A stretch of 48,003 nt of DNA from an uncultured Candidatus Saccharibacteria bacterium (GCA_964401135.1 CAYNXC010000001.1:72775-120777); one strand, 5' to 3'. Counted from the stretch's first letter, positions 6,064-31,286 are shown. The notes: generated by a model from the sequence alone, not told the origin. Program-made: numbers and translations.

Positions 6064-6072
6064 CTTTTTTAT

Positions 6073-13245: not shown

Positions 13246-13950
13246 TCAGCGTCGAATAAACAATGAATCTTCAAAAAGAATTTCCCCAGTGTGTGGGTGT
13301 AATTTCTGAGTAAGGGAACCGGCATAATAAAAGCCAAGCGATAAGAGGATAGGATATAGATCTTCAAAGAGAGACTGACCTGTATACCGTGGAACATAAG
13401 AATTTTCTATCACGAGAGCTTTTACTTGTAAGAGGGTACGACGGCCTCCTTCTATTACAGCCCGCTCGTATCCTTCGGCATCAATCTTGACTAAAATTTC
13501 TCCCCCTATATGTAGATTTCCAGAAAAGAAATCATCCATTCTTTGCACAGCGACGATTTCATCTTCTAAATTATGAGCATGCCCCAACGATTCTGTGTGT
13601 AATTGCTCCATGGGAAGAAGCGAAGAAGTAAGACTGTAATCACTACGATGAATAGAAAGGGTGCCATTAATGTCTCCGAATGCAAGTTGGTAAGCAGAAA
13701 AATTTTTATCCCCCCTCATTGTGTGCTCAAGATTTTTAAAACTTTCCTGCACTGGTTCAAATGAATAGATATAAGCTTTAGGCAAGTAAGAACGAAAAAG
13801 GATGGCTGATTGCCCTACATTTGCACCAACATCAATAACACTCTCAATATTCATTGAGCATACCCATGTAAGCCGATCAGGAGAAGGATGATATCGGTGA
13901 ACATCAAGTCCTACTGTGCGTAAGAGTCTCCGAAATGGGTGAATGTACAT
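13246..13950 (-). CDS. FkbM-family SAM-dependent methyltransferase
   Basis: Motifs VIDVGANVGQSAILF and KIDAEGYE are present. The ORF track extends to 14046, but the ATG at 13950 (MYIHPF...) avoids overlapping the upstream gene's stop at 13958. Confidence 0.65.
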   Translation of the reverse strand: MYIHPFRRLLRTVGLDVHRYHPSPDRLTWVCSMNIESVIDVGANVGQSAILFRSYLPKAYIYSFEPVQESFKNLEHTMRGDKNFSAYQLAFGDINGTLSIHRSDYSLTSSLLPMEQLHTESLGHAHNLEDEIVAVQRMDDFFSGNLHIGGEILVKIDAEGYERAVIEGGRRTLLQVKALVIENSYVPRYTGQSLFEDLYPILLSLGFYYAGSLTQKLHPHTGEILFEDSLFIRR

Positions 13951-13957
13951 GAAGTAT

Positions 13958-14554
13958 CTATTTCTTCGCAAAGAGATAGTAACCACTTGTCGTAGTCCTT
14001 TTTTCTGTCCGAAACAGTCTATCAAGAACTGATGAGAGAGGATCAATTACTCGACGCAATTTATGTTGAAAGGGGGAAAAAAATAAGAGGGCCTTAAAGT
14101 ATCCCCCGCGTTTTACCATCTCTACATGAGAGAAGTCTTTAAAGAGCATTACTAATGTATCATCAAAAAAACGCCAATAATCAGGGTAGTGGCCCTTTCG
14201 TGCATGATACGGATAGATAGACGGCACATGCACAAAAACCATTCCTCCTGGCTGAAGAATCCTATATAGCTCTTTCACTGCACGGATCGGGTCCTCAACA
14301 TGTTCAAGGACGCAGTGGCAGATAATGGAGTCGACGCTATTGTCCGCAAGCGGTATGGCGTGTATATCTCCAACGACATCAGCCCCGGAGTGAGAATCAT
14401 AATCCATGGTCTGGTACTCACATGACTGGAAGAGTGGCTGATATTTTCCTAGCCATTTTTGGAAACGTTCTCCACCACCAATATCTAGTACGCGATGAGT
14501 TTTGCTAATCTCCAATATCTTTTCGTCAATAAACCTCGTGTAGTTATCTTGCAT
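13958..14554 (-). CDS. Class I SAM-dependent methyltransferase (Methyltransf_11-like)
   Basis: 198-aa ORF with VLDIGGG (motif I) and DSIICHCVLEHVEDPIRAVKELYRILQPGGMVFVHVP. Confidence 0.75.
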   Translation of the reverse strand: MQDNYTRFIDEKILEISKTHRVLDIGGGERFQKWLGKYQPLFQSCEYQTMDYDSHSGADVVGDIHAIPLADNSVDSIICHCVLEHVEDPIRAVKELYRILQPGGMVFVHVPSIYPYHARKGHYPDYWRFFDDTLVMLFKDFSHVEMVKRGGYFKALLFFSPFQHKLRRVIDPLSSVLDRLFRTEKRTTTSGYYLFAKK

Positions 14555-14574: not shown

Positions 14575-15726
14575 CTAAAAGACAAAAATGGAATCATATA
14601 TTTCTTCTAAAGAGCGTCGGTAACGATGGATATTGAGTACACGCCCATCTGCATACTGACGATATACACTGCGATGCAGTCCTAATAGTGGTTCAAGTAT
14701 TAGATTAAACAGCCGAGCACCAAATGGGGTAAAAAATTCTTCTTGTTTTAAATGCAATGCTTCTCCACCATAGGTAAAATTATACCAGCGACTTTCTATA
14801 AAAAGTATCTTCCTTACCCCTTGGTGGTATGAAAGAAAACAATTCTCATGAAAATATGGGTGAGCAAAACTCATGATCACATCTTCCGTCTTTAGAGGAA
14901 GCGCTTTAATGAGACGGGCAGTACGCATTGCATCAATAAACTTTGACGGATAGGCAGAATACCAAATATATGGAATATCTCGTTCCTCATCAAATTCAGA
15001 AAAAATTCCTTCTGAAAGCGAGACCAGATTCCATCGTCGATGATGTAATTTTAATAATACCGTACGTAGTGTTGGGTTGGTACGACGTAGGTGACGAATA
15101 ATAATAGCGGCACGGAGAGCAGTAGAGGGTTCATTGGCAATAACCCAGAGAGTAGGAGGAGTGCCAACCGCTTGTGCAATTACAGAGAGAGATGCCCTTT
15201 CAATCTTTTGCGACACAGAGAATTCTTGTTTTGGGGCTAAAGAGTCAAATGATCGTATAAAAAAAGAGTTTGGGAATCCTGCATAGTAACCACGAGTTCC
15301 TTTCATCGTCTCTTCTGAGAGGGCACCAGTAAAGGCATCAAATAAGACGGCAGCCTGTAAGCCCATAAGATATGCAGATGCTGACGCCCATGAATTTATA
15401 GAAAATACATATTCGATCTCCTCTGAGCGTTCCAAGAGCAATACTTCTGCTATGGTCGGTTCTCCTATAGTAAACCCTGTAAGATCCAAGTATTTCCGCT
15501 CATCATGTTCATTTGGATGGACTTGGTAAAGTAGCGTCCGTCCTGGAAACTGTGTCCTGATGTATTCAAGCGCTTGATTGGTACGCTCTATAAAGAGATT
15601 TCGATTTGAATCTGCGGGAAGATTAAAAAAATCTGTGCTAAAAAATATCACCACATGTGGCTTGTTTGATAGTTTAGAATTACGATCAATCAGATACGGG
15701 AAGGGAATTTTTTGGATTGTACCCAT
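14575..15726 (-). CDS. Hypothetical protein; possible HP-motif (sialyltransferase-like) nucleotide-sugar transferase
   Basis: 383-aa soluble ORF. LLYQVHPNE is followed about 40 aa later by FSINSWASASAYLMG, which resembles the HP and Ser-rich motifs of bacterial sialyl/NulO transferases. It sits immediately downstream of the ulosonic-acid genes. The call is tentative. Confidence 0.3.
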   Translation of the reverse strand: MGTIQKIPFPYLIDRNSKLSNKPHVVIFFSTDFFNLPADSNRNLFIERTNQALEYIRTQFPGRTLLYQVHPNEHDERKYLDLTGFTIGEPTIAEVLLLERSEEIEYVFSINSWASASAYLMGLQAAVLFDAFTGALSEETMKGTRGYYAGFPNSFFIRSFDSLAPKQEFSVSQKIERASLSVIAQAVGTPPTLWVIANEPSTALRAAIIIRHLRRTNPTLRTVLLKLHHRRWNLVSLSEGIFSEFDEERDIPYIWYSAYPSKFIDAMRTARLIKALPLKTEDVIMSFAHPYFHENCFLSYHQGVRKILFIESRWYNFTYGGEALHLKQEEFFTPFGARLFNLILEPLLGLHRSVYRQYADGRVLNIHRYRRSLEEIYDSIFVF

Positions 15727-15731: not shown

Positions 15732-17012
15732 CTAATGCGGGCGTTTTTCTTTTTCTTTCTGAAAGTAGCGTATTGTCTGTTCTAAAGCCCGCATCTGCAA
15801 GTTCATATCCTTTTCAATCCCCTGATTACAAGTAAACTGCATCAATTTGGGCTGCAAGAGTTCTGCTTGAGGGCACTGGGTATGCCCTTTCAGAAATCCT
15901 TTATACTGTTTAAGTTGTACCGGCCCATCCTCAAAACATTTACCTTCTTTGTGGATGAGTTGAAACACAGGCTCATTGTAGACAAGGGCCCACGCAGCAT
16001 AGATTCCATCACCCCCGTATTCTATAAACTTTTTACGAAAATCATACCAGCTTACACCAAGAACTTTTTCTCCCTCGTAGCGCACACCAAACGTAAAGTA
16101 AGAATTAACGGAACCCTTTGGAACGTTTTGAGGAATGAGCCATGTGCACTTTGTCTTACGTATGGCCGCGAGGTATTTTTCTGCAATGCGCTGACGGCGC
16201 GAGACGAGGTAATCAATGCGTTCCATCTGTGCAAGACCAACAGCGGCAACGATCTCGGGCATTCGGTAATTAAACCCGAGTGAATCGTGACGAAGGTACT
16301 TTGGATCCTGAAAGATATTTTTATCTTTACGGACTCGAGCATTCTCTGCGGTAATATTCTTAAACCCGATACCGCCAAATTTTCTCATACGGCGTGCGAG
16401 TTCTGCATTATTAGTAATAAGAATACCGCCTTCTCCAGTTGCTACATGTTTTGAATTCTCAAAGCTAAAACTCCCTACATGCCCAATGGTACCCCCGAGG
16501 CGTCCCCGTGTGTCAGTACCCAAAAAACACTGCGCACAATCTTCAAGTACAAAGAGCTTATATTTCTTTGCAATTTTTATGATGGCATCCATATTACACA
16601 CTGCTCCGTACAAGTGTACTGCCATGATTGCCTTCGTCTTCTTTGTAATTTTCTTCTCAATGTCCCTTGGATCGATTAAGAAAGTGTCAGGATCGACATC
16701 AGCAAAGACAGGAGTCGCCCCTGTGTGGAGTACTGCAAAGCCGCACATAACGACGGTGAGAGCAGGGATAATAACCTCATCTCCTGGTCCAACACCAAAG
16801 GCCATTAGAGCTTGATGCAGTGTAGAGGTACCAGACGTTGAAGTAACAGCGTAAGTCACACCAAAACGCTTCGCGAATGCTGCTTCAAGTTGCTGGTTCA
16901 TGCTACCGAGCGTTGAGCTACCGAAGCCAGACTCTAGCACACCTCGCACGTACGCAAGCTCATTTCCAGAAAACCGCCATGTATTACTTGTTTGAACAAA
17001 TTTTTGCTTCAT
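15732..17012 (-). CDS. DegT/DnrJ/EryC1/StrS-family PLP-dependent sugar aminotransferase
   Basis: 426-aa ORF with the PLP-lysine region GSFSFENSKHVATGEGGILITNN. The N-terminal region has typical features (AFAKRFGVTYAVTSTSGTSTLHQAL). Confidence 0.85.
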   Translation of the reverse strand: MKQKFVQTSNTWRFSGNELAYVRGVLESGFGSSTLGSMNQQLEAAFAKRFGVTYAVTSTSGTSTLHQALMAFGVGPGDEVIIPALTVVMCGFAVLHTGATPVFADVDPDTFLIDPRDIEKKITKKTKAIMAVHLYGAVCNMDAIIKIAKKYKLFVLEDCAQCFLGTDTRGRLGGTIGHVGSFSFENSKHVATGEGGILITNNAELARRMRKFGGIGFKNITAENARVRKDKNIFQDPKYLRHDSLGFNYRMPEIVAAVGLAQMERIDYLVSRRQRIAEKYLAAIRKTKCTWLIPQNVPKGSVNSYFTFGVRYEGEKVLGVSWYDFRKKFIEYGGDGIYAAWALVYNEPVFQLIHKEGKCFEDGPVQLKQYKGFLKGHTQCPQAELLQPKLMQFTCNQGIEKDMNLQMRALEQTIRYFQKEKEKRPH

Positions 17013-17776
17013 GCAGATGTATCAAGAGCTTTTCTCATCGTGGCTCGTTTAGCAAGATAATCCTTTTGTCGGAATAAATTATGCTCTACGATATCACGTC
17101 TACCCGATAAGAACTTCATAATCTCACTCAAGGGAGTCTTGGGGTCAGTCAAGGGCATCTCAGTAATAATTTGTTTAAAAAACTCGTAATCTTCAACATA
17201 ATCAAGTGTCAAACGAGCATCACTCCCACAGAGTATTGCCGGAGCAGTAATAGGTACTCGCCGGAGATCAGTGACGGCATCGATGTAGGGATCTATCATC
17301 TCTGTATCGTCGGAAATCTTTTGTGAGACAATTCGTTCTAAGGCCTCTTTGGTAAAAGCGAAATCAAAACCACCGCAGACAACTTCTTCTGGTGGATATA
17401 CCATATCACAACTACCAGAGCGAAGCAGATCTGCAGCTTGATCAATGAGACTAGGGTCAACAAATAGATCGTCATTATCGTACGTTACAAAACCATCTGC
17501 ACCAAACATAGTGAGTGCACCAAGCCAACGCACTAGCTTATCCTTGACACTGCCACGGAAGACCTGTGCACCAGCAGTCTTTCCTACTTCTGCAAGACGG
17601 TCATCAGAAGGATCGTCTGTTGTACACAAAACAACGTACCGGAGATGTGACGCTCCCTGTGCTCGTAGAATGTTGTGCTCGATTACTGTTCTCTCTCCAA
17701 GTGGTAATAGTGCTTTCCCAGGGAGACGTGTAGAGCTCGTCCGCGCAGTAATAAAACAGTCAATATCTTTTGACAT
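17009..17776 (-). CDS. Cytidylyltransferase (SpsF / acylneuraminate cytidylyltransferase-like)
   Basis: 255-aa ORF with the N-terminal motif CFITARTSSTRLPGKALLPLGERTVIEH. It overlaps the downstream aminotransferase gene by 4 nt. Confidence 0.65.
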   Translation of the reverse strand: MSKDIDCFITARTSSTRLPGKALLPLGERTVIEHNILRAQGASHLRYVVLCTTDDPSDDRLAEVGKTAGAQVFRGSVKDKLVRWLGALTMFGADGFVTYDNDDLFVDPSLIDQAADLLRSGSCDMVYPPEEVVCGGFDFAFTKEALERIVSQKISDDTEMIDPYIDAVTDLRRVPITAPAILCGSDARLTLDYVEDYEFFKQIITEMPLTDPKTPLSEIMKFLSGRRDIVEHNLFRQKDYLAKRATMRKALDTSA

Positions 17777-17852
17777 AAGTATGTAATGGTCAAGTGTAGC
17801 ACAGCATTTACTCTACCAGCAAGCACTCTTTCACCAGTGACATAAAGGTATA

Positions 17853-17881
17853 TTGACATGAAACTTAAAATCTAGTAGTAT
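17853..17881 (+). promoter_or_regulatory. Sigma70-type promoter for the NeuB-like gene
   Basis: TTGACA (17853..17858), a 17-nt spacer, then TAGTAT (17876..17881). GGAGGA at 17914..17919 lies 5 nt before the ATG at 17925. Confidence 0.6.
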
Positions 17882-17924
17882 CCTCTCCAGACAAAACAGA
17901 TCATTGACACAAGAGGAGGAAAAA

Positions 17925-18911
17925 ATGGAACGAAAAATAAACCCAGTCCTCATAGGAGGACATACTATTGGCCCCGGCAAGTCAACATGTATTGTCGCCG
18001 AAATTGGGATCAATCATAATGGATTTCTGAAACATGTGTTTGCACTCATTGATGCGGCAGTTGCCGCTGGGTGTGATGCTGTGAAGTTTCAGAAACGAAC
18101 GATTCCCGTTGTGTACTCACCGGAAGAATTGGAACGTCCAAGGGAAGTACCGAGAGATGTATTAGAGAATGCGCTCCAGAGGAATGCACTTCCTCACAAG
18201 AATGCACAGCGCCTGATAGAGAGTAAGTTTTCTAACTCAACAAATGGAGATCTCAAGTACGCACTTGAATTTTCCGCACAAGAATATCAAGAGATTGCCC
18301 GCTACTGTGCATCTCGTTCTATCATGTGGTTCGCCTCTTGTTGGGATACTGGGGCGATCGAATGTATCGAGCAATTCAATCCTCCTTGTCACAAAATTGC
18401 ATCGGCATGCAACGAGGATGATGAATTGCTACGGGCACTCCGTGCGACAGGAAAGCCTCTCATACTCTCTACAGGAATGACTGACCTGCAGGGAGTTCAT
18501 GACGCAGTACGAGTACTCGAAGATCATGAACTGATCATTTTGCACTGCACCAGTGTATACCCAACAGGAACACAGTTTGGCACCGACATGCTGAGTTTGA
18601 TCAACCTCGCGGGAATAGACACTCTACAGAAAGAGTTCGGAGTCCCCGTTGGTTTTTCCAGTCATGACAGCGGCATTATGCCCACCTATGCAGCAGTGGT
18701 ACGAGGCGCTTGCATGGTTGAAAAGCACATCACACTTGAACCAAGTATGTGGGGTTCTGACCAGCGGAGTTCTATTCCTCCTCACACACTCATTGATCTG
18801 TGCCGGATGATACGCGAATTTCGTTACATCTTAGGGAACGGGGAAATCACAATACTTCCCAGTGAAGTGCCGCAGATGGAGAAATTACGACGAGTCCGCA
18901 GACAAAAATGA
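17925..18911 (+). CDS. NeuB/SpsE-family ulosonic-acid synthase (PEP-condensing TIM barrel), lacking the C-terminal SAF domain
   Basis: Signature IVAEIGINHNGFLKHVFALIDAAVAAGCDAVKFQKRT, then EKHITLEPSMWGSDQ. The track start at 17904 is a TTG; the ATG at 17925 has a good RBS. The protein ends about 25 aa after the ILGNGE motif, so there is no room for a SAF/AFP-like domain. Confidence 0.8.
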   Translation: MERKINPVLIGGHTIGPGKSTCIVAEIGINHNGFLKHVFALIDAAVAAGCDAVKFQKRTIPVVYSPEELERPREVPRDVLENALQRNALPHKNAQRLIESKFSNSTNGDLKYALEFSAQEYQEIARYCASRSIMWFASCWDTGAIECIEQFNPPCHKIASACNEDDELLRALRATGKPLILSTGMTDLQGVHDAVRVLEDHELIILHCTSVYPTGTQFGTDMLSLINLAGIDTLQKEFGVPVGFSSHDSGIMPTYAAVVRGACMVEKHITLEPSMWGSDQRSSIPPHTLIDLCRMIREFRYILGNGEITILPSEVPQMEKLRRVRRQK

Positions 18912-18921
18912 AGGAGTCTCT

Positions 18922-18960
18922 AAACCGCCAATCATAAGATTGGCGGTTTTTTATTTTTTT
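18922..18960 (+). terminator. Rho-independent terminator after the NeuB-like gene
   Basis: aaaccgccaatc (18922..18933), loop ataa, gattggcggttt (18938..18949), followed by a T-tract that runs into the 3' end of the convergent AKR gene. Confidence 0.75.
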
Positions 18961-19928
18961 CTATCTTTTGTATCCGCAGAGATTTCTGGAGGCCAATTTC
19001 TCAATTCTACCTGCATAACATCCTCTACCGCTAAAGTACGGAGTTGAGTCAGTACATCCTCTGGTAGGGGCCCCATGAGTGCTGCATCAAGCGCATTTTG
19101 AATATGTGAGGACTTGTTACTCCCTACGAGAACTGTTGTAATTGCCGTATTAGAAAGAGCGAAGCGAATGGCAAGTTGCGGTAGCGTGATGCCAAGTTGC
19201 GCTGCGAGCACTGCTGCGCTATCAGAATTCTTTTTTAAATCGGGGAGCGAAGAAGCGAGAAACTGTGACGCGGGAGTCAGCGCTCCCTTCATTAATACAG
19301 AACGATTAATGATACCGAGATCATGCTCCTTTGCTTTAAGGATAACGTTCTTTGCCATACGCTGATCAAGGATGCTATGAGCAAGTTGCAGAGTATCAAA
19401 GAAACCAGATTCAATGGCGGCAAGCGGAGCCTCCTCTCCTCGCGTAGAAATTCCAACGAAGCGAACCTTGCCTGCGTCTTTCAATTTCTGCATCGCATGA
19501 ATGATGCTTCCATTGCGGATCCGTTCTTCCGTGCCGCCGTGTACCTGCACTAATTCAAGGTGATCCAAGCCAAATGTGCGCAGACTTGCTTCTACCTCAG
19601 AGACCATCGCCCGGGCTAGTTCAGCATCACTGATAGTTTCTCCCCTATCAAGAATATGCCCGCACTTAGTGCTCACGATGATTCCGGGTAGATGTTGTAT
19701 ACCAGAAGCAGCAATTCGTTCTTCGGCAAGTTGATAGTAGGGAGCAGTATCTATAAACGTTATTCCTGCTTCTACAATCTGACATAAAAACTGTACTGCT
19801 TCTTCATGAGAAGGCAGAGTGCGTGGACCTAATCCATAGAGATAGCCGATAACAGTCGTCCCAAGACCAATCTCTGATATGGAGAGCTCGGTACGTCCAA
19901 GCCTACGCTGCGCAACTTTTTGTGACAT
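18951..19928 (-). CDS. Aldo/keto reductase family oxidoreductase
   Basis: 325-aa ORF with the N-terminal motif RRLGRTELSISEIGLGT, then FIDTAPYY and later LVQVHG. Confidence 0.75.
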   Translation of the reverse strand: MSQKVAQRRLGRTELSISEIGLGTTVIGYLYGLGPRTLPSHEEAVQFLCQIVEAGITFIDTAPYYQLAEERIAASGIQHLPGIIVSTKCGHILDRGETISDAELARAMVSEVEASLRTFGLDHLELVQVHGGTEERIRNGSIIHAMQKLKDAGKVRFVGISTRGEEAPLAAIESGFFDTLQLAHSILDQRMAKNVILKAKEHDLGIINRSVLMKGALTPASQFLASSLPDLKKNSDSAAVLAAQLGITLPQLAIRFALSNTAITTVLVGSNKSSHIQNALDAALMGPLPEDVLTQLRTLAVEDVMQVELRNWPPEISADTKDRKK

Positions 19929-19964
19929 CGGTTAACTATAAGCACAATGAAGTAGTAACGCAAA

Positions 19965-19996
19965 TTAAAACCCCACCCGCTGTAGCGGATGGGGTT
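19965..19996 (-). terminator. Rho-independent terminator after the KdsC-like gene
   Basis: ccccacccgc (19971..19980), loop tgta, gcggatgggg (19985..19994). On the minus strand this is a 10-bp stem with one G-U pair, followed by TTTTAATTT. Confidence 0.65.
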
Positions 19997-20010
19997 GTGC
20001 GAACACGAAT

Positions 20011-20601
20011 TTAGAATGGTCGCAATGTTGTCTGGTCAATTCCGCGGACACGGAGGATCTCGTTTGCAAAGTCTCGTACCGCACCATTACCTGCTGGACG
20101 GATACTCACATAGTCTGCCATATCCAGGATAACTTTCTCTGCGGTGGCAGGAGCAGCCCGGAACCCAACAACGATAAGCAGTGGAACATCAACCAGATCA
20201 TCCCCCATTGCGGCACAGTGTTCAGGATCAATTGAGAGAGCAGTGAGCCACTTTTTCACTGCATCCCGCTTGGCATTATGCCCCACTCCTGTGAAGAGTT
20301 TGATAGGGTACCATCCTCCTTGGCCCAAGGGTATCTGTGCCGAGGGAAGTCTGTTCCACTTATCTACGAGAAATCGTGCAGCAATCGCATTCTGCTCGCT
20401 CTCGTTCGTTGCAATAGCAATACGGAGACCAATGTCACGCAAGAGAGAGATCCCCTGCCCATCATAGTGACTTCTTGATTTAACGATAGCTCCATCTGGA
20501 TAGCCGATTTCTTCCGTGTTGTCAGTACATACCCCGTCAAAATCAAGGACGAGCGCCTTGAGAGCGAGGAGTCTCTGGATGCGGACCTGCAAATCAAGCA
20601 T
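20011..20601 (-). CDS. KdsC-family HAD phosphatase (ulosonate-phosphate phosphatase-like)
   Basis: Motif I is LVLDFDGVCTDN and motif IV is MGDDLVDVPLLIVVGFRAAPATA. The start is chosen at M23 (ATG 20601), which has GGAGGG 8 nt upstream. The track start at 20667 would overlap the SDR gene. Confidence 0.75.
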   Translation of the reverse strand: MLDLQVRIQRLLALKALVLDFDGVCTDNTEEIGYPDGAIVKSRSHYDGQGISLLRDIGLRIAIATNESEQNAIAARFLVDKWNRLPSAQIPLGQGGWYPIKLFTGVGHNAKRDAVKKWLTALSIDPEHCAAMGDDLVDVPLLIVVGFRAAPATAEKVILDMADYVSIRPAGNGAVRDFANEILRVRGIDQTTLRPF

Positions 20602-20641
20602 TACTAAACCCTCCTTTTTTTCAAATATGTCTTCGTTTATT

Positions 20642-21436
20642 CTACCACGCGGTCTTCCCTCCGTCAACGACTAGATTTGCCCCAGTCATCATAGTTGACG
20701 CATCAGAACAGAGAAAGATAATAGGCCCAGAATATTCCCCATACTCCGCCATACGGCCAAGCATATTTGCTCCGCCGTAGCTCTCCACAAAATCTTTCGG
20801 GAGTGTATCCATGCGCATCCCCGTAGGAGAAAAGGCATTCACTCGCACACCAAAGCGTCCGAGCCGTGCTGCCCACTGACGGGTGAGCCCGAGGATACCT
20901 GACTTAGTCGTCGTGTAGGCAATAGACTTAAAGCGTTTTTCGTCTGGATCGTTATATACACGGTGGTCATGCGCAATGAGTGAGAGGTCGGATGCAACAT
21001 TAACAATTGATCCAGACTTTTGCTTCATCATTATGGGTGCAACAGCTTTTGTACAGATCATGGTACCCGTTAAGTTTACGGCGAGCTCTTTCTCCCATAG
21101 TCCGATGTGGTACTCTTCATAGGGCACAAAGGCTTGTGCTGCATTTTTTGCTCCTACGGCAGGATTGAGTGCCGCGTTGTTGATGAGTGCATCTATCTTC
21201 CCAAATTTTTTTATAATCTTTTTGACTGCAGTTTGGACAGCTTTCTCTGAAGTAATGTCTACATTCTCATAGATGACTCCAGAAACAGGAGTCGCAGGCC
21301 GACCGGTATCCCACACAACCACCTGCGCTCCACCGTGAGAAAGTGCCTCTGCGTACTGTGCTCCTAAATACCCCACGCCACCAGTGAGGATGACTACTTT
21401 CCCGTGCACAGAAAACAGTAATATATTTTTTTTCAT
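20642..21436 (-). CDS. Short-chain dehydrogenase/reductase (SDR)
   Basis: 264-aa ORF with TGGVGYLG (TGxxxGxG), NNAA, and the catalytic YTTTK (YxxxK). Confidence 0.8.
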   Translation of the reverse strand: MKKNILLFSVHGKVVILTGGVGYLGAQYAEALSHGGAQVVVWDTGRPATPVSGVIYENVDITSEKAVQTAVKKIIKKFGKIDALINNAALNPAVGAKNAAQAFVPYEEYHIGLWEKELAVNLTGTMICTKAVAPIMMKQKSGSIVNVASDLSLIAHDHRVYNDPDEKRFKSIAYTTTKSGILGLTRQWAARLGRFGVRVNAFSPTGMRMDTLPKDFVESYGGANMLGRMAEYGEYSGPIIFLCSDASTMMTGANLVVDGGKTAW

Positions 21437-22263
21437 AGATGAGAAGCAATAAGATTTTTTACAAAAGTACGCTGTGTATCAGCATTATTGAGATACTCCG
21501 CACCTCGCCACGCCTGTAAAGTAAACTGCCCATGGTATCCCACATCTTTCAATGCTTTGAAGGATTCTCCAAACGGTACAGCTCCCTTCCCGAGCAATGT
21601 AGAAGCTCCTCCGAGCACCCGATCTTTGATATGGACTAATGTAATCGCATTACCAAGTTGTCGGATTTCTGCGGGGATATCAACCCCGTAGGAAGCGGCA
21701 TTCCCTAGATCATAGCAGACACCAACATTCGGTCCACAAGCAGAGACAAATGAGAGTAATTCAGGAGCGGGCATCTCAGTCTCAAGGGCAATGCGTAAGC
21801 CAAGTGCCTGTGCCTGCGTAGCGAGTTTATAGATCGTCGCCTGTGATTCTTTTTTTTCTTCTTCTGAATGAGGAGCAAATTTCTCTACCAGTGGGATAGA
21901 GACAATCGCACTGGCAAGTCGAGGAGCAAGTGCAGGGAGAAGCGTAGGGAAGTCGGCAAGGGTACGCTCTGCCGCAGGACCAAAAGTTCCATAACATCCG
22001 CAGTCAATAGAACCGATTGGGAGCATTCCCCGTGCACGATCAATCTTTTCAACTATTTCTGGCTTACCCCACACATCACAAATAGGGTCAAAGTGAGGGA
22101 CATCTACATCCAAAAACCAATCAATGGAGTCAAAGCCGTGCTCCTGTGCAATTGAGAATTCGTCTTCCCAGATAGGAGGGAAAAATTGAAAACGACCGTC
22201 GAGAGAAGGAGAGAGTCTCCCCTGCATAATACTGATGGGATACATAGCGAAGTATAATGTCAC
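21433..22263 (-). CDS. Xylose-isomerase-like TIM-barrel protein (sugar phosphate isomerase/epimerase family)
   Basis: 276-aa ORF with IALETE, LVHIKD and GQFTLQAW-type motifs. The start could instead be one of the internal Met residues (M7 or M13). Confidence 0.6.
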   Translation of the reverse strand: MTLYFAMYPISIMQGRLSPSLDGRFQFFPPIWEDEFSIAQEHGFDSIDWFLDVDVPHFDPICDVWGKPEIVEKIDRARGMLPIGSIDCGCYGTFGPAAERTLADFPTLLPALAPRLASAIVSIPLVEKFAPHSEEEKKESQATIYKLATQAQALGLRIALETEMPAPELLSFVSACGPNVGVCYDLGNAASYGVDIPAEIRQLGNAITLVHIKDRVLGGASTLLGKGAVPFGESFKALKDVGYHGQFTLQAWRGAEYLNNADTQRTFVKNLIASHL

Positions 22264-22300
22264 TTTCTATGTAAGCAGTCAAGGCTCACTCAAAAAGGTC

Positions 22301-22328
22301 TTGTAATTTTTAAAAAATGATGTATAAC
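22301..22328 (+). promoter_or_regulatory. Candidate promoter for the radical SAM / flippase transcript
   Basis: TTGTAA (22301..22306), a 16-nt AT-rich spacer, then TATAAC (22323..22328). The purine-rich AGGAAGAG lies just before the ATG at 22393. Confidence 0.4.
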
Positions 22329-22392
22329 TTATAGTAGAAATGGATCCTTGAGATTCGTTATATTTGTCTAGAAAAGAAAGGAAAGGAAGAGA

Positions 22393-24039
22393 ATGGCACA
22401 GATATCCCTCACCCCGTATACAGCACGAGAGTATGTGAAAGCACTTCCACCAGATACGCTAAGAGGGCTCAAGATACTCTTCATCAACATGCCTCTCCGC
22501 GAGTCTGCGCGGCCAAATACTCCTCCGCAGGGTCCAGGGCTGCTCGCGGCACGGCTCCGTCGCTACGGCGCAGAACCAACAATCGTGGACATTAATGCGT
22601 ATCGTATCCGAGATGAAGCGGCAGAGACGCGAGGGCTCCCCTACGGGAGGCATCTCAGTATAGAGGAGACGAGGGGCTTACTCTCTCGGCATATCAACAA
22701 GCACGGGGAGCCGCATATCATTGCCCTCTCAGGGATGATTACCACACTCCGTTGGCAAGAGCATGTTGTCTCAATGTGTAGAGCACTCGTCCCCGGAGCC
22801 TTCATTGTCTCTGGTGGCGGGCTGGCAACCGATATCAAAATGGGTCTCTTTCAGTGGATGCCTGAGCTTGATGCAATCGTACACTCTGAAGGAGACGACA
22901 TGATGCTTGTCCTCGCACACCGTTTCAAAATCGGCATTCTGGACGAGATGAGTCACTACTGTGTTGGGATGCACGATGGACGTCTGCACTTCCTCTTCGC
23001 AGGAGATCGTCCAGAAAATCTGGACGATCTCCCCTACGCCGCATGGGACTTACTCCACGAAGATGTTGATGGTCATCCACTACTTGAGTGGTATATCCAG
23101 ACACCGGTCTGGGGAGGTTCTGCCAACAACAGTTCAGCAACCCCCTTCACGATGGAGCGAAGTTTGACAACAGTGTCTAGCCGCGGTTGTCCTTATGCTT
23201 GCGGGTTCTGTGACAGACAAGCGCAGGGTGAGCGGAACTACGGGATGCGTAGTGCCGAGAGTCTTGCGCAAGAAGCCGAGTGGCTTGTCACAAGCTACAG
23301 AATTGATTTTCTCGGATTCCCTGATGATAATTTTGCAGTAGATCCACGACGCACAAAAAAGCTCCCTGAGGTATTTGCTCCACTCAAGGGATTACGCTGT
23401 GGCACTCATACGCGTCTTGATGAAATTGACGCACGAGCCTTTGATATGGCTCGTGCAGGATGTATCTACATTGGAGTAGGAGCAGAGAGTGCAGCAGTAC
23501 GGACTTTGGAATCTATGAACAAGGGGGGATTTATTCTCCGTCCGCGGGGAAGTAAAGAAAATCAACTCACCAAGATTAATGGGTTCCACTTTCCCACAAC
23601 GATGGTACGCGGGATTGAGACTGCACAGGAAGCAGGTATCCATGTCAACTGCACATGGATTATGGCTTACCCAGAAGAGACATTAGAGGATCTCAAGACC
23701 AGCGTCGGGTTCATTCTGTGGCAAGGAGAAACATCACCTCCTTCTGCGGTAAACAAAAAGATGTTTGTCGCTACGGCCTACCCCGGCACAGAGATGTTCC
23801 GTCATCCAAAAGTGAAGCGTCTCATCTCAGAACACTTTGACGTCCGCTACCAAGGGGACGGCACCCCCATCGCTGATGAAGCGTTCCATTCGTACTTGCT
23901 CGAATTGGATGATGCCACTAAAGTCATGTACGGAAGAGACGGCTCCCCACTCAATTTTGGCGAGATGTCAGATGATGACTTTTTGCAGGCACGAGAGTAC
24001 GTCAATTCCGGACAAATTGAACGAATTTTGGACATGTAG
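22393..24039 (+). CDS. B12-binding-domain radical SAM enzyme (class B-like)
   Basis: 548-aa ORF with the CxxxCxxC cluster in SSRGCPYACGFCD. The N-terminal roughly 200 aa is Rossmann-like (ILFINMP..., IIALSGMITT...), as in cobalamin-binding radical SAM proteins. Confidence 0.75.
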   Translation: MAQISLTPYTAREYVKALPPDTLRGLKILFINMPLRESARPNTPPQGPGLLAARLRRYGAEPTIVDINAYRIRDEAAETRGLPYGRHLSIEETRGLLSRHINKHGEPHIIALSGMITTLRWQEHVVSMCRALVPGAFIVSGGGLATDIKMGLFQWMPELDAIVHSEGDDMMLVLAHRFKIGILDEMSHYCVGMHDGRLHFLFAGDRPENLDDLPYAAWDLLHEDVDGHPLLEWYIQTPVWGGSANNSSATPFTMERSLTTVSSRGCPYACGFCDRQAQGERNYGMRSAESLAQEAEWLVTSYRIDFLGFPDDNFAVDPRRTKKLPEVFAPLKGLRCGTHTRLDEIDARAFDMARAGCIYIGVGAESAAVRTLESMNKGGFILRPRGSKENQLTKINGFHFPTTMVRGIETAQEAGIHVNCTWIMAYPEETLEDLKTSVGFILWQGETSPPSAVNKKMFVATAYPGTEMFRHPKVKRLISEHFDVRYQGDGTPIADEAFHSYLLELDDATKVMYGRDGSPLNFGEMSDDDFLQAREYVNSGQIERILDM

Positions 24040-24047: not shown

Positions 24048-24075
24048 ACCCATTCGCCATGGCGAATGGGTTTTT
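24048..24075 (+). terminator. Rho-independent terminator after the radical SAM gene
   Basis: Perfect palindrome cccattcgccatggcgaatggg (24049..24070) followed by ttttt. Confidence 0.7.
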
Positions 24076-24122
24076 CATTGATTTATGCATCTGGTAAGTC
24101 GTATAATGGCGCGATAGACTCT

Positions 24123-25370
24123 ATGGGAAACCCTCTCGCATATCGGATACTCCGCTCAAGCGAAAAATACTTCAAGACCGATATGGTATACCTCGCAAAA
24201 GGAGGATTTTGGCTTGTGAGCGGGCAGGTGGCAATCTCCGTGTCATCCTTAGGCCTATCAGTCGCATTTGCTAACTTACTCTCTCCGGAGATCTATGGTA
24301 CTTATCGTTATATTCTAACAATCTCTAACTTTCTTGCCATACCAACACTCACTGGTCTCAATGCCGCACTTGCACGATCCGCGGCGCAAAAGATGGATGG
24401 GTCACTCCGAGCCGCTTTCAACACGCGATTACGGTGGGGCTTATTCAGCACTCTGCTAGGTCTTGGTGTTGCGGGGTACTATCTCTGGCAACATGATCTA
24501 GTACTTGCAATGAATATCTTTCTCATTGCTCTATTTGCCCCCTTGTTCTACTCTTGCGAAGTATACTCATACTTTCTCCGTGGTAAAAAACTTTTTAAAG
24601 ATTTTTCACTCTACAGTTCTATCGCAATCATCATCCCCACATCCACGGTCATTGGAACACTCTTTCTCACAAAAAACTTAACACTCATTCTCTTGAGTTA
24701 CTTTATACCATACACAATACTGAAAGGATTTTTCCTATTTCTCACCACTCGGCGCATACCGTCAGCGAGTCCAGTCGATGCAGGGCTTATATCGTATGGA
24801 AAACATTTGAGTGTGATGAGCATATTCGGTGTTGTGGCACAAAATATAGATAAATTCCTACTGTGGCATTACTTAGGAGCTGCACAGCTTGCTGTATATA
24901 CATTTGCGATGTCTCCTGTCAGTAATATGGAAGCGGTCATGGGGAAATTAGATGCGCTCGTCTTTCCAAAAATTGCAGAGCGTGATATCGGAGAGATACG
25001 CAAGACAATTTACGGAAAAACATTTCGAATATTCTTAGTTGTCGCGAGTGTAGTGACGCTCTACATCCTCTGTGCTCCGTTCTTATACTCAATTGCCTTT
25101 CCACAATATCTTGAATCAGTCGCATACTCCCAAGTACTTGCTCTTACATTACTCATTTCCCTCCCGATCATGCTCGTGAGTAATGTATTTATTGCGCACG
25201 CACGAATTCGTGAAAAATATTACCTAAGCCTTATTGGTCCAGGAATAAAGATACTACTTTTTATTGTCTTAATCCCGAGTTATGGCATCTGGGGATTAAT
25301 CTTTGGGACATTAGGATTTCATCTCGTATCGGCTACTGCGTCCATACTCTTTTTTAGGAAGATCGCTTAG
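24123..25370 (+). CDS. Wzx-type oligosaccharide flippase (MOP superfamily)
   Basis: About 12 to 14 hydrophobic helices. The start is placed at ATG 24123 because the track start at 24066 lies inside the terminator hairpin. The 3' end overlaps the convergent GT-C gene by 17 nt. Confidence 0.6.
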   Translation: MGNPLAYRILRSSEKYFKTDMVYLAKGGFWLVSGQVAISVSSLGLSVAFANLLSPEIYGTYRYILTISNFLAIPTLTGLNAALARSAAQKMDGSLRAAFNTRLRWGLFSTLLGLGVAGYYLWQHDLVLAMNIFLIALFAPLFYSCEVYSYFLRGKKLFKDFSLYSSIAIIIPTSTVIGTLFLTKNLTLILLSYFIPYTILKGFFLFLTTRRIPSASPVDAGLISYGKHLSVMSIFGVVAQNIDKFLLWHYLGAAQLAVYTFAMSPVSNMEAVMGKLDALVFPKIAERDIGEIRKTIYGKTFRIFLVVASVVTLYILCAPFLYSIAFPQYLESVAYSQVLALTLLISLPIMLVSNVFIAHARIREKYYLSLIGPGIKILLFIVLIPSYGIWGLIFGTLGFHLVSATASILFFRKIA

Positions 25371-27006
25371 GGCAGTCATACACTGTCCCCATAATATGCC
25401 CAGACTGAGTGCGGAATACTACCGTGCAAGAACGGAAAAAAGATTCATAATAGCTCCCTCCATAGATACGAGGGATATCTACAATGAGAAAGTGCCCATC
25501 GAATTCAGAAAAGCGTGTTTTATGTACAGATTCATACTCTGGTACAGCGTAGAAACGATTTGCATATTTCCCCATACGGGACAACTCATGCGCACCGGTA
25601 TCGTTATAGGTAATTACTGAAGAGATGTCTGAACGAGACTGTACCACCAAAAGTGTTTGCCGAAGTACTCGAGCAGGACTCCCGTTAATGTTCCCCCATT
25701 GATACTCTTCAATAAATACAGCATTGTAGGCTACCCCTAATATGAGGAGGATGATCACTACTGAAGAAACAGAAAAAATACGGAGACGGGCAGTAAGTGC
25801 GAGGAATAAAGAGAGTAAAAATACCACCGCAATGAAGAGGAACGAGACATAAAAACCGATTGGACCAGAACCGCCAGTGAAAGGTATGAGCATATCCCAA
25901 TCCCCATGGAAGACTCGCGCGAACCATTCTTGCTTTGGATAGAGCGGGAGTACGGTCTGATGAAAAAAATTCAGTGCGAAGACCGCGAGAGAGAAGAGCG
26001 TGCCAGCAAGTAAGGTACTTTTAATATTTCTAGATAGAGGAGTTAGTGATGCTAGTATCGATCCTGAGATCGCGGCAAGTGGGATGATGCTGAACATGAG
26101 ATACTTATCAAGTGCGCCACGAGAAAAATCAAAAAGCACAAAGTAGAACAAGGCTCCAAGGATCAGGTAGATAAGGAAGATACGAAGTACACGGAACTGC
26201 GCCCGTGTCCCAAGGAGTAATGGGATCAGTAATAACGGGGAGAGATACTCCAGAGCTTTAATCGCTTGTACAATGACTTGTGTAGTATTTCGTCCTGAAA
26301 GATGAATATATGAGAGTGCATGCGCAAGCATAGCCCCAAGAGAGAATGCGGGAAATAAAAGCGGAGCGACAAACAGTATCAGAAGAAACGATACAGCGAA
26401 AGAGATGGTCACAAAGATGATCTTCAGTAACTCTTGTCGTCTAAACTGAGAGCGTACCGTCAGCACATACTCACAGAGAAAGGCGCCGAGAACAATGACA
26501 AAACTCAACTTCACCATACAGCCAGCAAGTAAGGATGCGCCGAATCCAATAAGCCAGTACCAACGACGCTCCCCTTCAGCTTGTCTCCATCGCTCGTAAC
26601 ACACAAGAGAGAGAAGGAAAAAGAATGGGAGCAGTGCTCCGTCAGTATCAATCATGTGCGAAGCTAGCACGCTATAAAAAGAAATGCTGTATAGAAACAC
26701 AGCAAAAAGAGCGGCCTTATTTCCGACATAGTGTCGAACTATGTATGCAAGTAGAAAAAGGGACAGGGACGAAAAGATGAGAGGGAGGATGCGCAAGTTA
26801 TCTACGCCAACAGCTTTTTCTGCTACAGAGTATGAGAGCTGTGTAAGCGGAGGATGCGCGATTGCGGTACTTCTCGTCTCTACTGCGTGTGCTGTTTTCC
26901 ATTCATCTTGGTGATACGGGAGAGTAAGCCCAGGAAGACGGATGAGTAAAAAGAATATCGCAAGCGCCACAAGTTCAATGTGAAATCGCTTTTTAGATGT
27001 ATTCAT
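25354..27006 (-). CDS. GT-C fold membrane glycosyltransferase (ArnT/PMT, GT39/GT83-like)
   Basis: 550-aa polytopic ORF. The first periplasmic loop carries LPYHQDEWK (a D-E motif). The C-terminal roughly 130 aa appears soluble. Confidence 0.55.
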   Translation of the reverse strand: MNTSKKRFHIELVALAIFFLLIRLPGLTLPYHQDEWKTAHAVETRSTAIAHPPLTQLSYSVAEKAVGVDNLRILPLIFSSLSLFLLAYIVRHYVGNKAALFAVFLYSISFYSVLASHMIDTDGALLPFFFLLSLVCYERWRQAEGERRWYWLIGFGASLLAGCMVKLSFVIVLGAFLCEYVLTVRSQFRRQELLKIIFVTISFAVSFLLILFVAPLLFPAFSLGAMLAHALSYIHLSGRNTTQVIVQAIKALEYLSPLLLIPLLLGTRAQFRVLRIFLIYLILGALFYFVLFDFSRGALDKYLMFSIIPLAAISGSILASLTPLSRNIKSTLLAGTLFSLAVFALNFFHQTVLPLYPKQEWFARVFHGDWDMLIPFTGGSGPIGFYVSFLFIAVVFLLSLFLALTARLRIFSVSSVVIILLILGVAYNAVFIEEYQWGNINGSPARVLRQTLLVVQSRSDISSVITYNDTGAHELSRMGKYANRFYAVPEYESVHKTRFSEFDGHFLIVDIPRIYGGSYYESFFRSCTVVFRTQSGHIMGTVYDCPKRSS

Positions 27007-30651: not shown

Positions 30652-31286
30652 ACGCGACCACAGACAAACACGAGATCAAACGAGAACATCCCGGGAAAAA
30701 ACGCATCCCATTGAGCGTAGGTCCCCAAGGGAGTGATACGAACCTCACCAAAATGATCTTTCAAGAGACCTGTTAGTTCACGGTAAGAAAAATGATTGAT
30801 GTGGGTCGGATCTTCCAGTGTGGAGTCTTTTTTATTTCCAAAAAACAGCCGGATCCTGTTCTTTAAATGGAAAGCGTTTGGAACAGAACCGATCAATACA
30901 CCTTCCGTCTTAAGAAGAGGAATAATCTTAGCAAGCGCACGATGCGGATAATAGAGATGTTCCAGTGTTTCTGCAAGTACAATTGAGTCATACGTCTGGC
31001 CGTGTAGTTCTTTCCATGCGCCGTGCAAATCCATATGAATCGTCCGTATGCCACGTGCAGCCGCTTTCTCGAGAGCGATCGCGTCAATATCAACACCAGT
31101 GACATCATTTCCAGAAACAAAATATTGGGTCAGCGCTCCATCGCGACAGCCGAGATCAAGAACTCTTTTGCCGGTACCAATTATGCGGGAAAAGAGCGCG
31201 CCTCGTTCTTCTTTCAAAATACTAAAGTCATCCCCACGGGCGCTGAGATTATGGGACTCATAGATTGATTGATTACTTGTTGCCAT
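30648..31286 (-). CDS. Class I SAM-dependent methyltransferase (MetW-like)
   Basis: 212-aa ORF with VLDLGCRDGALT (motif I), YDSIVLAETLEHLYYP and IGSVPNAFHLKNRIRLFFG. Confidence 0.7.
   Translation of the reverse strand: MATSNQSIYESHNLSARGDDFSILKEERGALFSRIIGTGKRVLDLGCRDGALTQYFVSGNDVTGVDIDAIALEKAAARGIRTIHMDLHGAWKELHGQTYDSIVLAETLEHLYYPHRALAKIIPLLKTEGVLIGSVPNAFHLKNRIRLFFGNKKDSTLEDPTHINHFSYRELTGLLKDHFGEVRITPLGTYAQWDAFFPGMFSFDLVFVCGRV

Follow-up and report, generated by a model that had tools for sequence, protein, structure and literature searches.

Routes to nonulosonic and related ulosonic acids, sugars that shape the recognition of bacterial surfaces, have been characterised in few cases, namely for neuraminic acid (Neu), pseudaminic acid (Pse), legionaminic acid (Leg) and its epimers, ketodeoxynononic acid (Kdn), 3-deoxy-D-manno-octulosonic acid (Kdo) and its 8-amino derivative Kdo8N. 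In Shewanella, Kdo8N is formed by oxidation (KdnB) and transamination (KdnA) of an ulosonic acid. Kdn biosynthesis in Bacteroides thetaiotaomicron (BT1713-1715) and Prymnesium parvum involves a Kdn-9-phosphate (Kdn-9-P) synthase, a phosphatase and a cytidine monophosphate (CMP)-Kdn synthetase (PMC6200933). The Kdn teichulosonic acid of Streptomyces is associated with a cluster carrying NeuA/NeuB homologues (PMC13011467, PMC3479208). ElaABC of Acinetobacter baumannii KL49 and Vibrio vulnificus serves the synthesis of CMP-Leg5,7Ac2, in which C8 is epimerised by oxidation and re-reduction of a hydroxyl of the CMP-nonulosonate (PMC13656337). Here we describe a gene cassette at positions 15732-24039 of a 48,003-nucleotide stretch of an uncultured Candidatus Saccharibacteria genome (GCA_964401135.1 CAYNXC010000001.1:72775-120777; the whole stretch is hereafter "the window"). 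We put a probability of roughly 0.6 on the reading that its eight genes and the neighbouring gene for a 383-aa protein form one module, which would make and transfer a CMP-activated, amino-modified 3-deoxy-2-ulosonic acid distinct from Neu5Ac, Pse, Leg, Kdo and plain Kdn.

We found no report of such a cassette in the literature on nonulosonic acids in Patescibacteria, or on radical S-adenosylmethionine (SAM) enzymes in nonulosonic-acid clusters. A Vibrio fusion of SpsF with an aldo/keto reductase (AKR) was the sole literature lead on the combination of these two proteins.

The cassette and its SAF-less NeuB synthase

Pfam and NCBIfam searches, together with the translations, identified eight adjacent and tightly packed genes. 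The initial annotation, made from the sequence of the window, had counted nine while listing eight; its family assignments were confirmed for all eight, and the motifs DFDGVCTDN, GDDLVDVP and CPYACGFC were all recovered in the translations. The cassette comprises the following features.

15732-17012 (-), DegT aminotransferase (Pfam DegT, 284.6 bits)
17009-17776 (-), SpsF-like cytidylyltransferase (Pfam CTP_transf_3, 50 bits; cut-off 22.6)
17853-17881 (+), promoter-like site before the NeuB gene (TTGACA-17-TAGTAT, 10/12 consensus positions; a consensus match only)
17904-18911 (+), SAF-less NeuB, as the listed open reading frame (ORF) (Pfam NeuB domain only, 209.4 bits; cut-off 22.1)
18922-18949 (+), terminator-like hairpin in the gap between the convergent genes for NeuB and AKR (12-bp stem, then a T-run)
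18951-19928 (-), AKR (Pfam Aldo_ket_red, 120.4 bits)
20011-20667 (-), haloacid dehalogenase (HAD) phosphatase, as the listed ORF (best NCBIfam match the KdsC subfamily, E 1.5e-18)
20642-21436 (-), classical short-chain dehydrogenase/reductase (SDR) (Pfam adh_short_C2, 135 bits)
21433-22263 (-), xylose-isomerase-like triosephosphate isomerase (TIM) barrel (Pfam AP_endonuc_2, 54.3 bits)
22393-24039 (+), radical SAM enzyme (Pfam Radical_SAM, PF04055, 53.3 bits)

The start of the DegT gene overlaps the stop of the cytidylyltransferase gene by 4 nt, an overlap of the same length joins the SDR and TIM-barrel genes, and a second terminator-like hairpin lies 3' of the phosphatase gene. The NeuB gene most likely starts at ATG 17925, which follows a GAGGAGG ribosome-binding site and gives a protein of 328 aa, the same length as a 99%-identical homologue (P0001). 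The phosphatase gene most likely starts at ATG 20601 after AAGGAGG (196 aa; gene 20011-20601, -), and with this start its apparent overlap with the SDR gene disappears. Named homologues come mostly from Patescibacteria/Parcubacteria (Ryanbacteria, Kaiserbacteria and others), the closest being a Ryanbacteria protein with 82% identity, in agreement with the genome of candidate phyla radiation (CPR) type that had been proposed for the window.

The NeuB protein shows no match to PF08666 (SAF), as annotated initially, and stops 5 residues past an invariant K327-L-R-R330 motif. All of its 120 best homologues likewise consist of the NeuB domain alone (120/120). In the NeuB of Neisseria meningitidis (NmNeuB), the SAF or antifreeze-like domain supplies Arg314 to the neighbouring active site. 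Profile alignment places E33, K61, Q63, K164, S167 and S189 of the window protein on NmNeuB E25, K53, Q55, K129, S132 and S154, and H214, Y219, H254, E273, H275 and D286 on NmNeuB H181, Y186, H215, E234, H236 and D247. Thus H254 and H275 correspond to the metal histidines H215 and H236, every metal and phosphoenolpyruvate (PEP) ligand of NmNeuB is kept, and these ligands are invariant across 148 family ORFs; the loss of ligands that would have spoken against the initial annotation was not seen. On the strength of the retained ligands, we predict that the protein is a genuine synthase of a distinct SAF-less clade, which suits the coherent ulosonic-acid module proposed at the outset. The scores for the curated NeuB equivalog (TIGR03569, 199.9 against a cut-off of 399.65) and for PseI (TIGR03586, 157.6 against 340.25) both fall short by about half. 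The closest solved structure, 6NCS (290 aa), is also SAF-less; both 6NCS and 6OEW, the latter mentioned below, are presumably Leptospira proteins.

The clade was surveyed by scanning one genome per species, which gave 80 loci with SAF-less relatives at 41-50% identity; three loci fetched earlier brought the set to 83. The hosts include Saccharibacteria, Peregrinibacteria, Acidobacteriota, Chloroflexia, Melainabacteria, Polyangia, Planctomycetes, Streptomyces and others. Partner genes were counted by iterative jackhmmer on the ORFs of each locus, because tblastn with the window proteins missed diverged cytidylyltransferases and phosphatases. A KdsC-like phosphatase was found within 10 kb of the SAF-less NeuB in 64 of the 83 loci, directly adjacent to it in 53 of those 64, and a phosphatase-cytidylyltransferase fusion occurred in 12 loci of the same set. 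SIS-type sugar-phosphate isomerases stood beside the SAF-less NeuB in 24 of 69 loci. The frequency of the phosphatase fits the phosphorylated intermediate put forward by the initial annotation, and supports the view that a phosphorylated route would be the norm of the SAF-less clade. The window protein also carries a clade-specific D172-D173 pair, and NeuB proteins with this motif tend to have a phosphatase gene close by (Fisher p 2e-7, odds ratio 6.3, without correction for phylogeny).

The window phosphatase itself is a C0 HAD protein of the KdsC/YrbI family, with HAD motifs I (DFDGVCTD) and IV (GDDLVDVP) aligned to the corresponding segments of the solved 3MMZ and 3N1U, and with an insertion of ~25 aa between motifs II and III. 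Its scores are below the cut-offs of TIGR01670 (67.2 against 106.95), NF007019 (62.3 against 208) and NF058599 (58.6 against 180), the last being the match to the NCBIfam Kdn-9-P phosphatase (E 8e-16). Phosphatase and AKR are the variable parts of the cassette. The cytidylyltransferase has its closest solved structure in 6OEW (E 6.7e-22), with KdsB at ~1e-4; it reaches at most 39.2 bits against KdsB equivalogs (cut-offs 193-281) and 21.9 against PseF (205.7). By family, it is a putative CMP-ulosonate synthetase of the SpsF-like type.

The DegT protein retains the Schiff-base lysine in the context SFENSK188, as read from the translation. It scores 218.7 against PseC (cut-off 423.5) and 218.2 against LegC (cut-off 420), and both cut-offs are missed. 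Its best relatives in the PDB are perosamine synthases, and the Kdo8N transaminase KdnA (5K8B) follows with an E of 2.4e-42. We rejected a separate perosamine-like branch of nucleotide-sugar synthesis for this protein, since the window has no 4,6-dehydratase and DegT is coupled to the cytidylyltransferase both here and in relatives. For the SDR, the nearest NCBIfam families act on sugar acids and polyols, e.g., gluconate 5-dehydrogenase and KduD. The AKR is found mainly in Patescibacteria versions of the cassette (L001-3, L006, L016, L085, L104 and L110), and elsewhere its slot is taken by a second SDR or a Gfo/Idh/MocA enzyme. PDB sequence searches gave family-level matches only for the SDR and the TIM barrel. 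The latter is weakly similar to L-ribulose-5-phosphate 3-epimerase and IolE, and E161, D185, H211, K213, D214 and Q250 are invariant in its subfamily. We regard it as a putative metal enzyme of a distinct subfamily, a candidate sugar isomerase or dehydratase. A dehydrogenase paired with an AP_endonuc_2 dehydratase is known from IolG/IolE.

Neither a 4,6-dehydratase nor an N-acetyltransferase nor an Epimerase_2 (NeuC-type) enzyme was detected among the ORFs of at least 150 aa and the scanned small ORFs of the 48-kb window, so that the standard Pse/Leg set is missing from the window as the initial annotation had stated. No cassette gene reaches the NCBIfam equivalog cut-off for enzymes of the Neu, Pse, Leg, Kdo or Kdn pathways (NeuB, PseI, PseC, LegC, PseF, KdsB, KdsC and Kdn-9-P phosphatase), in line with the suggestion that the pathway is an uncharacterised one. 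Taken together, these two results make a plain known product unlikely.

The radical SAM family

The radical SAM protein carries the cluster motif C266-x3-C270-x2-C273 (CPYACGFC), whose cysteines are invariant in 29 homologues. The initial annotation had assigned it a B12-binding domain. An AlphaFold model (predicted local distance difference test score, pLDDT, 89.4) is compatible with this in its fold, with a predicted N-terminal B12-type Rossmann domain joined to a radical SAM barrel, i.e., class-B architecture; the Pfam match to the B12-binding family PF02310 stays at 23.0 bits, below the cut-off of 32.1. The model was matched by Foldseek to TsrM, AprD4, TokK, CysS, OxsB and MgmA in the PDB (E 1e-15 to 1e-12, template-modelling (TM) score ~0.55), and the protein is at most 17% identical to any solved member and reaches no NCBIfam equivalog. 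The N-terminal domain is very highly conserved within the family, and by eye we read in it a degenerate B12 signature at residues 66-143, D66-x-N68-x-x-R71, 42 residues, S113-G-M115, 26 residues and G141-G-G143, which keeps the spacing of the textbook DxHxxG/SxL/GG motif and most residues of which are invariant in the 29 homologues. This degenerate motif fits base-off/His-off binding of cobalamin as in class-B methylases, and would be compatible with the C-methylation suggested initially.

Nevertheless, the cobalamin-free fold of AprD4 was matched equally well as those of the methylases. AprD4 has the same architecture without cobalamin, acts as a 1,2-diol dehydratase and is partnered by an SDR reductase, AprD3; we therefore keep dehydration, with a subsequent reduction or transamination, as a serious alternative to C-methylation. 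It is possible, at somewhat worse than even odds, that the enzyme is such an AprD4-like dehydratase or another radical oxidoreductase, whose deoxy-keto product would go to the SDR or AKR for reduction or to DegT for amination; after condensation, this would introduce the deoxy and amino groups for which Leg and Pse pathways use a 4,6-dehydratase. AprD4 (6FD2) gave the highest target-normalised TM (0.65) among the best Foldseek matches, was also found by PDB sequence search and has an NCBIfam match with an E of 3.6e-8; SDR and aminotransferase partners are frequent, which mirrors the AprD4/AprD3 pair, and the window offers no 4,6-dehydratase. In addition, PF02310 is detected in just part of the family, and the family occurs mostly in Patescibacteria, which are expected to lack B12 synthesis. 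On the other hand, TsrM, TokK, CysS and OxsB match as well as AprD4 does, the NCBIfam matches to BchE, ApyD and P-methyltransferases are stronger than that to AprD4, and the conserved N-terminal domain keeps its B12-type motif at canonical spacing. We prefer neither C-methylation nor dehydration as the predicted reaction.

The family comprises 782 protein clusters at E<=1e-10, the best 120 of which are at least 54% identical to the window protein, and was confirmed on 395 metagenomic contigs. To describe its neighbourhoods, we used 51 loci flanked by 8 kb or more. NeuB (mostly 275-295 aa) was present in 44 of the 51, a cytidylyltransferase in 42, an oxidoreductase in 40, an aminotransferase in 34 (DegT 22, class III 14), the TIM barrel in 21, a phosphatase in 20 and an MptE/Maf-like gene in 14. 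The aminotransferase count speaks for the amination step that had been anticipated. In 26 of 27 radical-SAM-anchored loci, the SDR and AP_endonuc_2 genes were direct neighbours with the same orientation, and an aminotransferase of either class adjoined the cytidylyltransferase in 28 of 41 cases. A marine locus (L086) holds radical SAM, cytidylyltransferase, DegT, NeuB, SDR, AP_endonuc_2 and SDR genes, in this order, as a single operon. Judging from these neighbourhoods, the radical SAM proteins are a family of their own and a dedicated partner of NeuB and cytidylyltransferase cassettes. The cassette thus recurs widely, and two views of the initial annotation have to be given up: that the composition is unusual, and that a CPR genome is a surprising place for the radical SAM enzyme, as most named members of the family are from Patescibacteria.

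Conservation and the surrounding glycan locus

Other Patescibacteria keep NeuB, cytidylyltransferase, AP_endonuc_2, SDR and AKR together, and the genes around this core (aminotransferases, methyltransferases, sulfotransferases, KpsC/S-like or TagF-like transferases) are variable. The closest comparison is offered by a sister locus, L084, which is fully syntenic with the window: its flanks are 62-86% identical, the radical SAM protein 82%, DegT 60%, the cytidylyltransferase 37% and the phosphatase 35%. In place of the separate SAF-less NeuB and TIM barrel, L084 encodes a 632-aa NeuB-SAF-AP_endonuc_2 fusion (4456-6354; also in L087-L089), the AP_endonuc_2 domain of which differs from the window TIM barrel. 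The replacement of the synthase within conserved flanks suggests that the cassette core is exchangeable in a fixed locus, and the fusion suggests a functional link between the TIM barrel and NeuB. The genes are thus syntenic in relatives rather than scattered, and judged by gene order the extra genes are conserved partners, not passengers.

Several related loci carry further genes. In Candidatus Sungiibacteriota (CP066690.1; L085 12152-13555), a diversity-generating retroelement (RVT_1 reverse transcriptase and bAvd) separates the radical SAM gene from the genes for AKR, aminotransferase, cytidylyltransferase, methyltransferase and NeuB. Thiamine diphosphate (TPP) enzymes are found in related cassettes as a full transketolase (L168 9192-11096), a split E1/deoxyxylulose-phosphate (DXP)-synthase-like enzyme (L150 18690-19388) and an acetolactate-synthase-like enzyme (L056 11436-13256); they may be a sign that the sugar precursor of some variants undergoes C2 extension or branching and, together with the SIS isomerases, they point to the supply of a sugar-phosphate precursor. 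An MptE-like (Maf/DUF115-type) gene is located immediately upstream of radical SAM, NeuB and cytidylyltransferase genes at L150 8001-8936 and in 13 other marine radical SAM loci, suggesting that marine bacteria use the same sugar for flagellin or protein glycosylation. In a Kaiserbacteria locus (L002 5270-9717), genes for a sulfotransferase and an adenosine phosphosulfate (APS) kinase, together with a fused pyruvate-kinase-like/ATP-sulfurylase gene, flank the module and suggest that the sugar or glycan has a sulfated form.

By its gene content, the cassette sits inside a surface-glycan locus of the Wzx/Wzy type, whose flanks encode a Wzy_C protein with tetratricopeptide (TPR) repeats, five glycosyltransferase family 4 (GT4) enzymes, a PMT_2 enzyme of the GT-C fold, three methyltransferases and Wzx:

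9911-12130 (-), Wzy_C membrane protein, O-antigen ligase/polymerase-like, with C-terminal TPR repeats, at the left end of the glycan locus (Wzy_C 83.6 bits; 79% in L084)
12157-13242 (-), GT4 glycosyltransferase (Pfam Glycos_transf_1, Glyco_trans_1_4; 77% in L084)
13246-14046 (-), FkbM-family methyltransferase, candidate sugar O/N-methylase (Methyltransf_21 69.7 bits)
13958-14554 (-), class I SAM methyltransferase (Methyltransf_11 56.2 bits; 86% in L084)
14575-15726 (-), 383-aa protein, candidate CMP-ulosonate transferase (GT-B-like fold, invariant Y67...H70-P71)
24066-25370 (+), Wzx-type flippase, co-directional with the radical SAM gene (Polysacc_synt 43.2 bits; 78% at the same position in L084)
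25354-27006 (-), PMT_2 (GT-C) membrane glycosyltransferase (PMT_2 41.1 bits)
27003-32412 (-), right-hand section of the glycan locus, encoding a methyltransferase and four GT4 enzymes, one of which has a GtrA domain (Pfam; mostly 69-76% identical and syntenic in L084)

The 383-aa protein, encoded next to the DegT gene, showed no Pfam match at E<=1. An AlphaFold2 model (pLDDT 89.5) predicts two Rossmann domains, and Foldseek gave weak matches to GtfA, the polysialyltransferase 5WCN (TM ~0.2), UDP-GlcNAc 2-epimerases and TagF-like polymerases. Word-indexed search found 22 homologues, the named ones all from Patescibacteria, and an exhaustive profile search raised the number of relatives to 296; H70-P71 is invariant among the homologues. 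One relative, P0404, matches the polysialyltransferase family PF07388 (E 1.9e-4, 21.5 bits, against a gathering score of 23.3), and hhalign pairs residues 6-132 of the window protein, the HP motif included, with P0404 218-346, which is the PF07388 region (probability 97.9%). In many of these pairings, the HP-motif-bearing N-terminal half of the window protein aligns to the C-terminal half of the relative, and in comparison with P0404 the order of the domains appears to be swapped. Relatives of the gene stand directly beside NeuB or DegT. With moderate confidence, we consider the protein a candidate sialyltransferase-like CMP-ulosonate transferase. It may alternatively be a hidden NeuC-type epimerase, given the matches to 2-epimerase folds, which is less likely because of the link of the HP motif to polysialyltransferases and the occasional fusion to methyltransferase domains.

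The ORFs for the FkbM and Methyltransf_11 proteins overlap by 89 nt (13958-14046); the FkbM homologue in L084 is shorter (234 aa), which places the true start of the window gene probably further downstream. The third GT4 gene (29494-30651) is just 34% identical in L084, and the methyltransferase gene at 30648-31286 is without a counterpart there. Adjoining the glycosyltransferases is a gene for a VirD4/TraG-like type IV coupling ATPase (32425-34110, -; weak T4SS-DNA_transf and TrwB matches), which holds the same position in L084 (84%). The window also contains SecA and SecDF, a complete 16S rRNA gene (38990-40448, -; 1373.8 bits), tRNA genes at 37689-37772 (-), 38650-38721 (+) and 40622-40693 (-), and, beside the rRNA/tRNA region, a 128-aa ORF matching S-adenosylmethionine decarboxylase (38149-38535, -; AdoMet_dc, 78.4 bits). 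No 23S or 5S rRNA was detected anywhere in the window, and the rRNA operon thus appears to be unlinked.

A possible pathway and its relation to known routes

A pathway can be drawn from the family assignments. The SAF-less NeuB would condense PEP with an aldose phosphate, which the TIM barrel may supply from a ketose phosphate, as KdsD does for KdsA. The KdsC-family phosphatase would take off the terminal phosphate, and the SpsF-like cytidylyltransferase would form the CMP-sugar. The SDR and AKR would oxidise or reduce a hydroxyl, and isomerisation or dehydration of the keto intermediate may fall to the TIM barrel, with which the SDR is paired. DegT would turn the keto group into an amine, most likely on the CMP-sugar, as in ElaABC and most DegT reactions. 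The radical SAM enzyme is expected to modify the same scaffold by either of two reactions—1) C-methylation or 2) AprD4-like dehydration of a diol to a deoxy-keto group—and the neighbouring methyltransferases may decorate the sugar. Finally, the GT-B protein with the HP motif would transfer the sugar to a lipid-linked repeat unit, which Wzx would flip and the Wzy_C protein would polymerise or ligate.

Some of our data weigh against this pathway. The position of NmNeuB E134 is occupied by C169 in the window protein and by Cys or Ser across the clade, so the chemistry of the sugar site may differ from that of NmNeuB. The second catalytic residue of ketose 3-epimerases is a Glu, and the TIM barrel carries Gln at this position. 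Class III aminotransferases, which seldom act on nucleotide sugars, replace DegT in many cassettes (14 of the 51 loci have class III), which weakens the case for amination at the level of the CMP-sugar. The window provides no N-acyltransferase for the amine. AKR is absent from L084, and both AKR and phosphatase are absent from marine radical SAM cassettes; the phosphorylated route is accordingly not universal for the pathway linked to the radical SAM family. As for the last step, the transferase assignment of the 383-aa protein goes through weak, chained similarity (TM ~0.2, and a PF07388 match below the gathering score).

The order of steps could also be the reverse, with the redox, TIM-barrel, aminotransferase and radical SAM enzymes converting a central ketose phosphate into an uncommon aldose phosphate (amino, deoxy or branched) before a linear Kds-like route through NeuB, phosphatase and cytidylyltransferase. 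Tailoring ahead of condensation is established for the Pse, Leg and Neu pathways, all of which modify the hexose first. It would also agree with the NeuB-SAF-AP_endonuc_2 fusion, which suggests that the TIM barrel hands its product to NeuB, with the SIS isomerases, transketolase and other TPP enzymes of related cassettes, and with the exchange of DegT for class III aminotransferases, which prefer non-nucleotide substrates. We nevertheless consider this order unlikely, roughly a one-in-four matter. The aminotransferase gene adjoins the cytidylyltransferase gene, and here overlaps it; DegT enzymes normally use nucleotide-linked keto sugars; and the families nearest to the SDR act on sugar acids such as 2-keto-3-deoxygluconate (KDG) and gluconate. 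That tailoring at the CMP level exists is shown by ElaABC (PMC13656337).

Improbable, in our judgement, is an ordinary sugar (CMP-Kdn, CMP-Kdo, CMP-Pse or CMP-Leg) with the extra genes serving other sugars of the glycan or the missing Pse/Leg genes lying elsewhere in the genome: just 48 kb of the genome are in view, NeuB, phosphatase and cytidylyltransferase alone make up the known Kdn route (PMC6200933), and Streptomyces, which makes Kdn teichulosonic acid, has a SAF-less NeuB with a cytidylyltransferase-HAD fusion, but every curated equivalog cut-off is missed by a wide margin, the DegT and cytidylyltransferase genes overlap, Pse and Leg routes have no phosphatase, and the occurrence of radical SAM, DegT, SDR and TIM-barrel genes follows that of NeuB and cytidylyltransferase on hundreds of contigs from several phyla, some of which have them as a single operon.

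We return to the amino-modified ulosonic acid as the preferred product. It is attractive to speculate, though tentatively, that the cassette represents an undescribed, fourth type of ulosonic-acid pathway, in which a sugar phosphate is condensed first; the radical SAM enzyme, the SDR/TIM-barrel pair and the aminotransferase would then act on the ulosonate, or on its CMP ester, to add the deoxy, amino or C-branched groups. The product might be a new sugar, e.g., a C-methylated or deoxy-amino analogue of Kdn or Kdo, on the surfaces of CPR and many marine bacteria, attached by a domain-swapped sialyltransferase-like transferase. The locus would then be an entry point to a further ulosonic-acid route that is genomically common in Patescibacteria and marine metagenomes, and it unites radical SAM proteins for which no function is known with a conserved pair of SDR and TIM barrel and with what may be a new CMP-sugar transferase family. 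The chemistry of CPR envelopes and of the surfaces by which these bacteria attach to their hosts is almost unknown, and from the cassette one would expect a glycan made by Wzx/Wzy to contain an acidic sugar that is zwitterionic or methylated. It also raises the question of whether envelope synthesis in CPR bacteria depends on scavenged cobalamin.

Among the known systems, the Pse and Leg pathways (including B. subtilis SpsC-G/M) share with the window a DegT enzyme, a NeuB-family synthase, an SpsF-type cytidylyltransferase and a setting of glycan or flagellin glycosylation, to which the marine cassettes with an MptE/Maf-like gene correspond. The window differs from them in having no 4,6-dehydratase, N-acetyltransferase or recognisable hydrolysing 2-epimerase, in its SAF-less synthase, in the presence of a phosphatase and in scores below the PseC, LegC, PseI and PseF cut-offs. 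The Kdo pathway (KdsD-KdsA-KdsC-KdsB) has the same order of isomerase, PEP condensation, KdsC-type phosphatase and CMP activation, and the window cytidylyltransferase is distantly KdsB-like. Unlike in that pathway, however, the synthase is of the NeuB type and not KdsA, the putative isomerase belongs to AP_endonuc_2 and not to the SIS type, the scores lie below the Kds cut-offs, and the host is a CPR bacterium, in which lipopolysaccharide is not expected. In the Kdo8N system of Shewanella, an oxidoreductase likewise acts with a DegT-fold aminotransferase, and the window DegT is clearly related in structure to KdnA (5K8B). The iron alcohol dehydrogenase of the KdnB type is replaced by SDR and AKR in the window, whose DegT is nearer to perosamine synthases than to KdnA.

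The radical SAM protein resembles class-B enzymes (TsrM, TokK, CysS, Fom3 and GenK) and the cobalamin-free AprD4/AprD3 deoxygenation system in its predicted N-terminal Rossmann domain of the B12 type and its CxxxCxxC barrel. It differs from them in sharing at most 17% identity with any solved member, in matching no equivalog and in belonging to a family of its own that is tied to NeuB/cytidylyltransferase cassettes. Fom3 acts on a cytidylylated substrate.

The CMP-Kdn pathway has in common with the cassette the condensation of PEP with a sugar phosphate by a NeuB-family enzyme, a C0 HAD phosphatase and a CTP_transf_3 enzyme. The window phosphatase scores 58.6 bits against the 180 of the Kdn family, the cytidylyltransferase is SpsF/6OEW-like, and the window DegT, SDR, AKR, TIM barrel and radical SAM enzyme are without counterparts in that pathway. 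The Streptomyces loci show an arrangement of cytidylyltransferase, HAD and NeuB genes, and those in question (L071, L074-L083) are tentatively linked to SCO4880/4881 by gene order and annotation alone. As to ElaABC, the window departs from it in the partner of the SDR, an AKR in place of a Gfo/Idh/MocA enzyme, in three additional enzymes (aminotransferase, TIM barrel and radical SAM enzyme) and in the absence of upstream Leg genes from the window. Both systems nevertheless cluster a cytidylyltransferase with two NAD(P) oxidoreductases, and in a Chloroflexia relative of the cassette (L018) the resemblance extends to a Gfo/Idh/MocA enzyme and an SDR encoded beside NeuB and the cytidylyltransferase.

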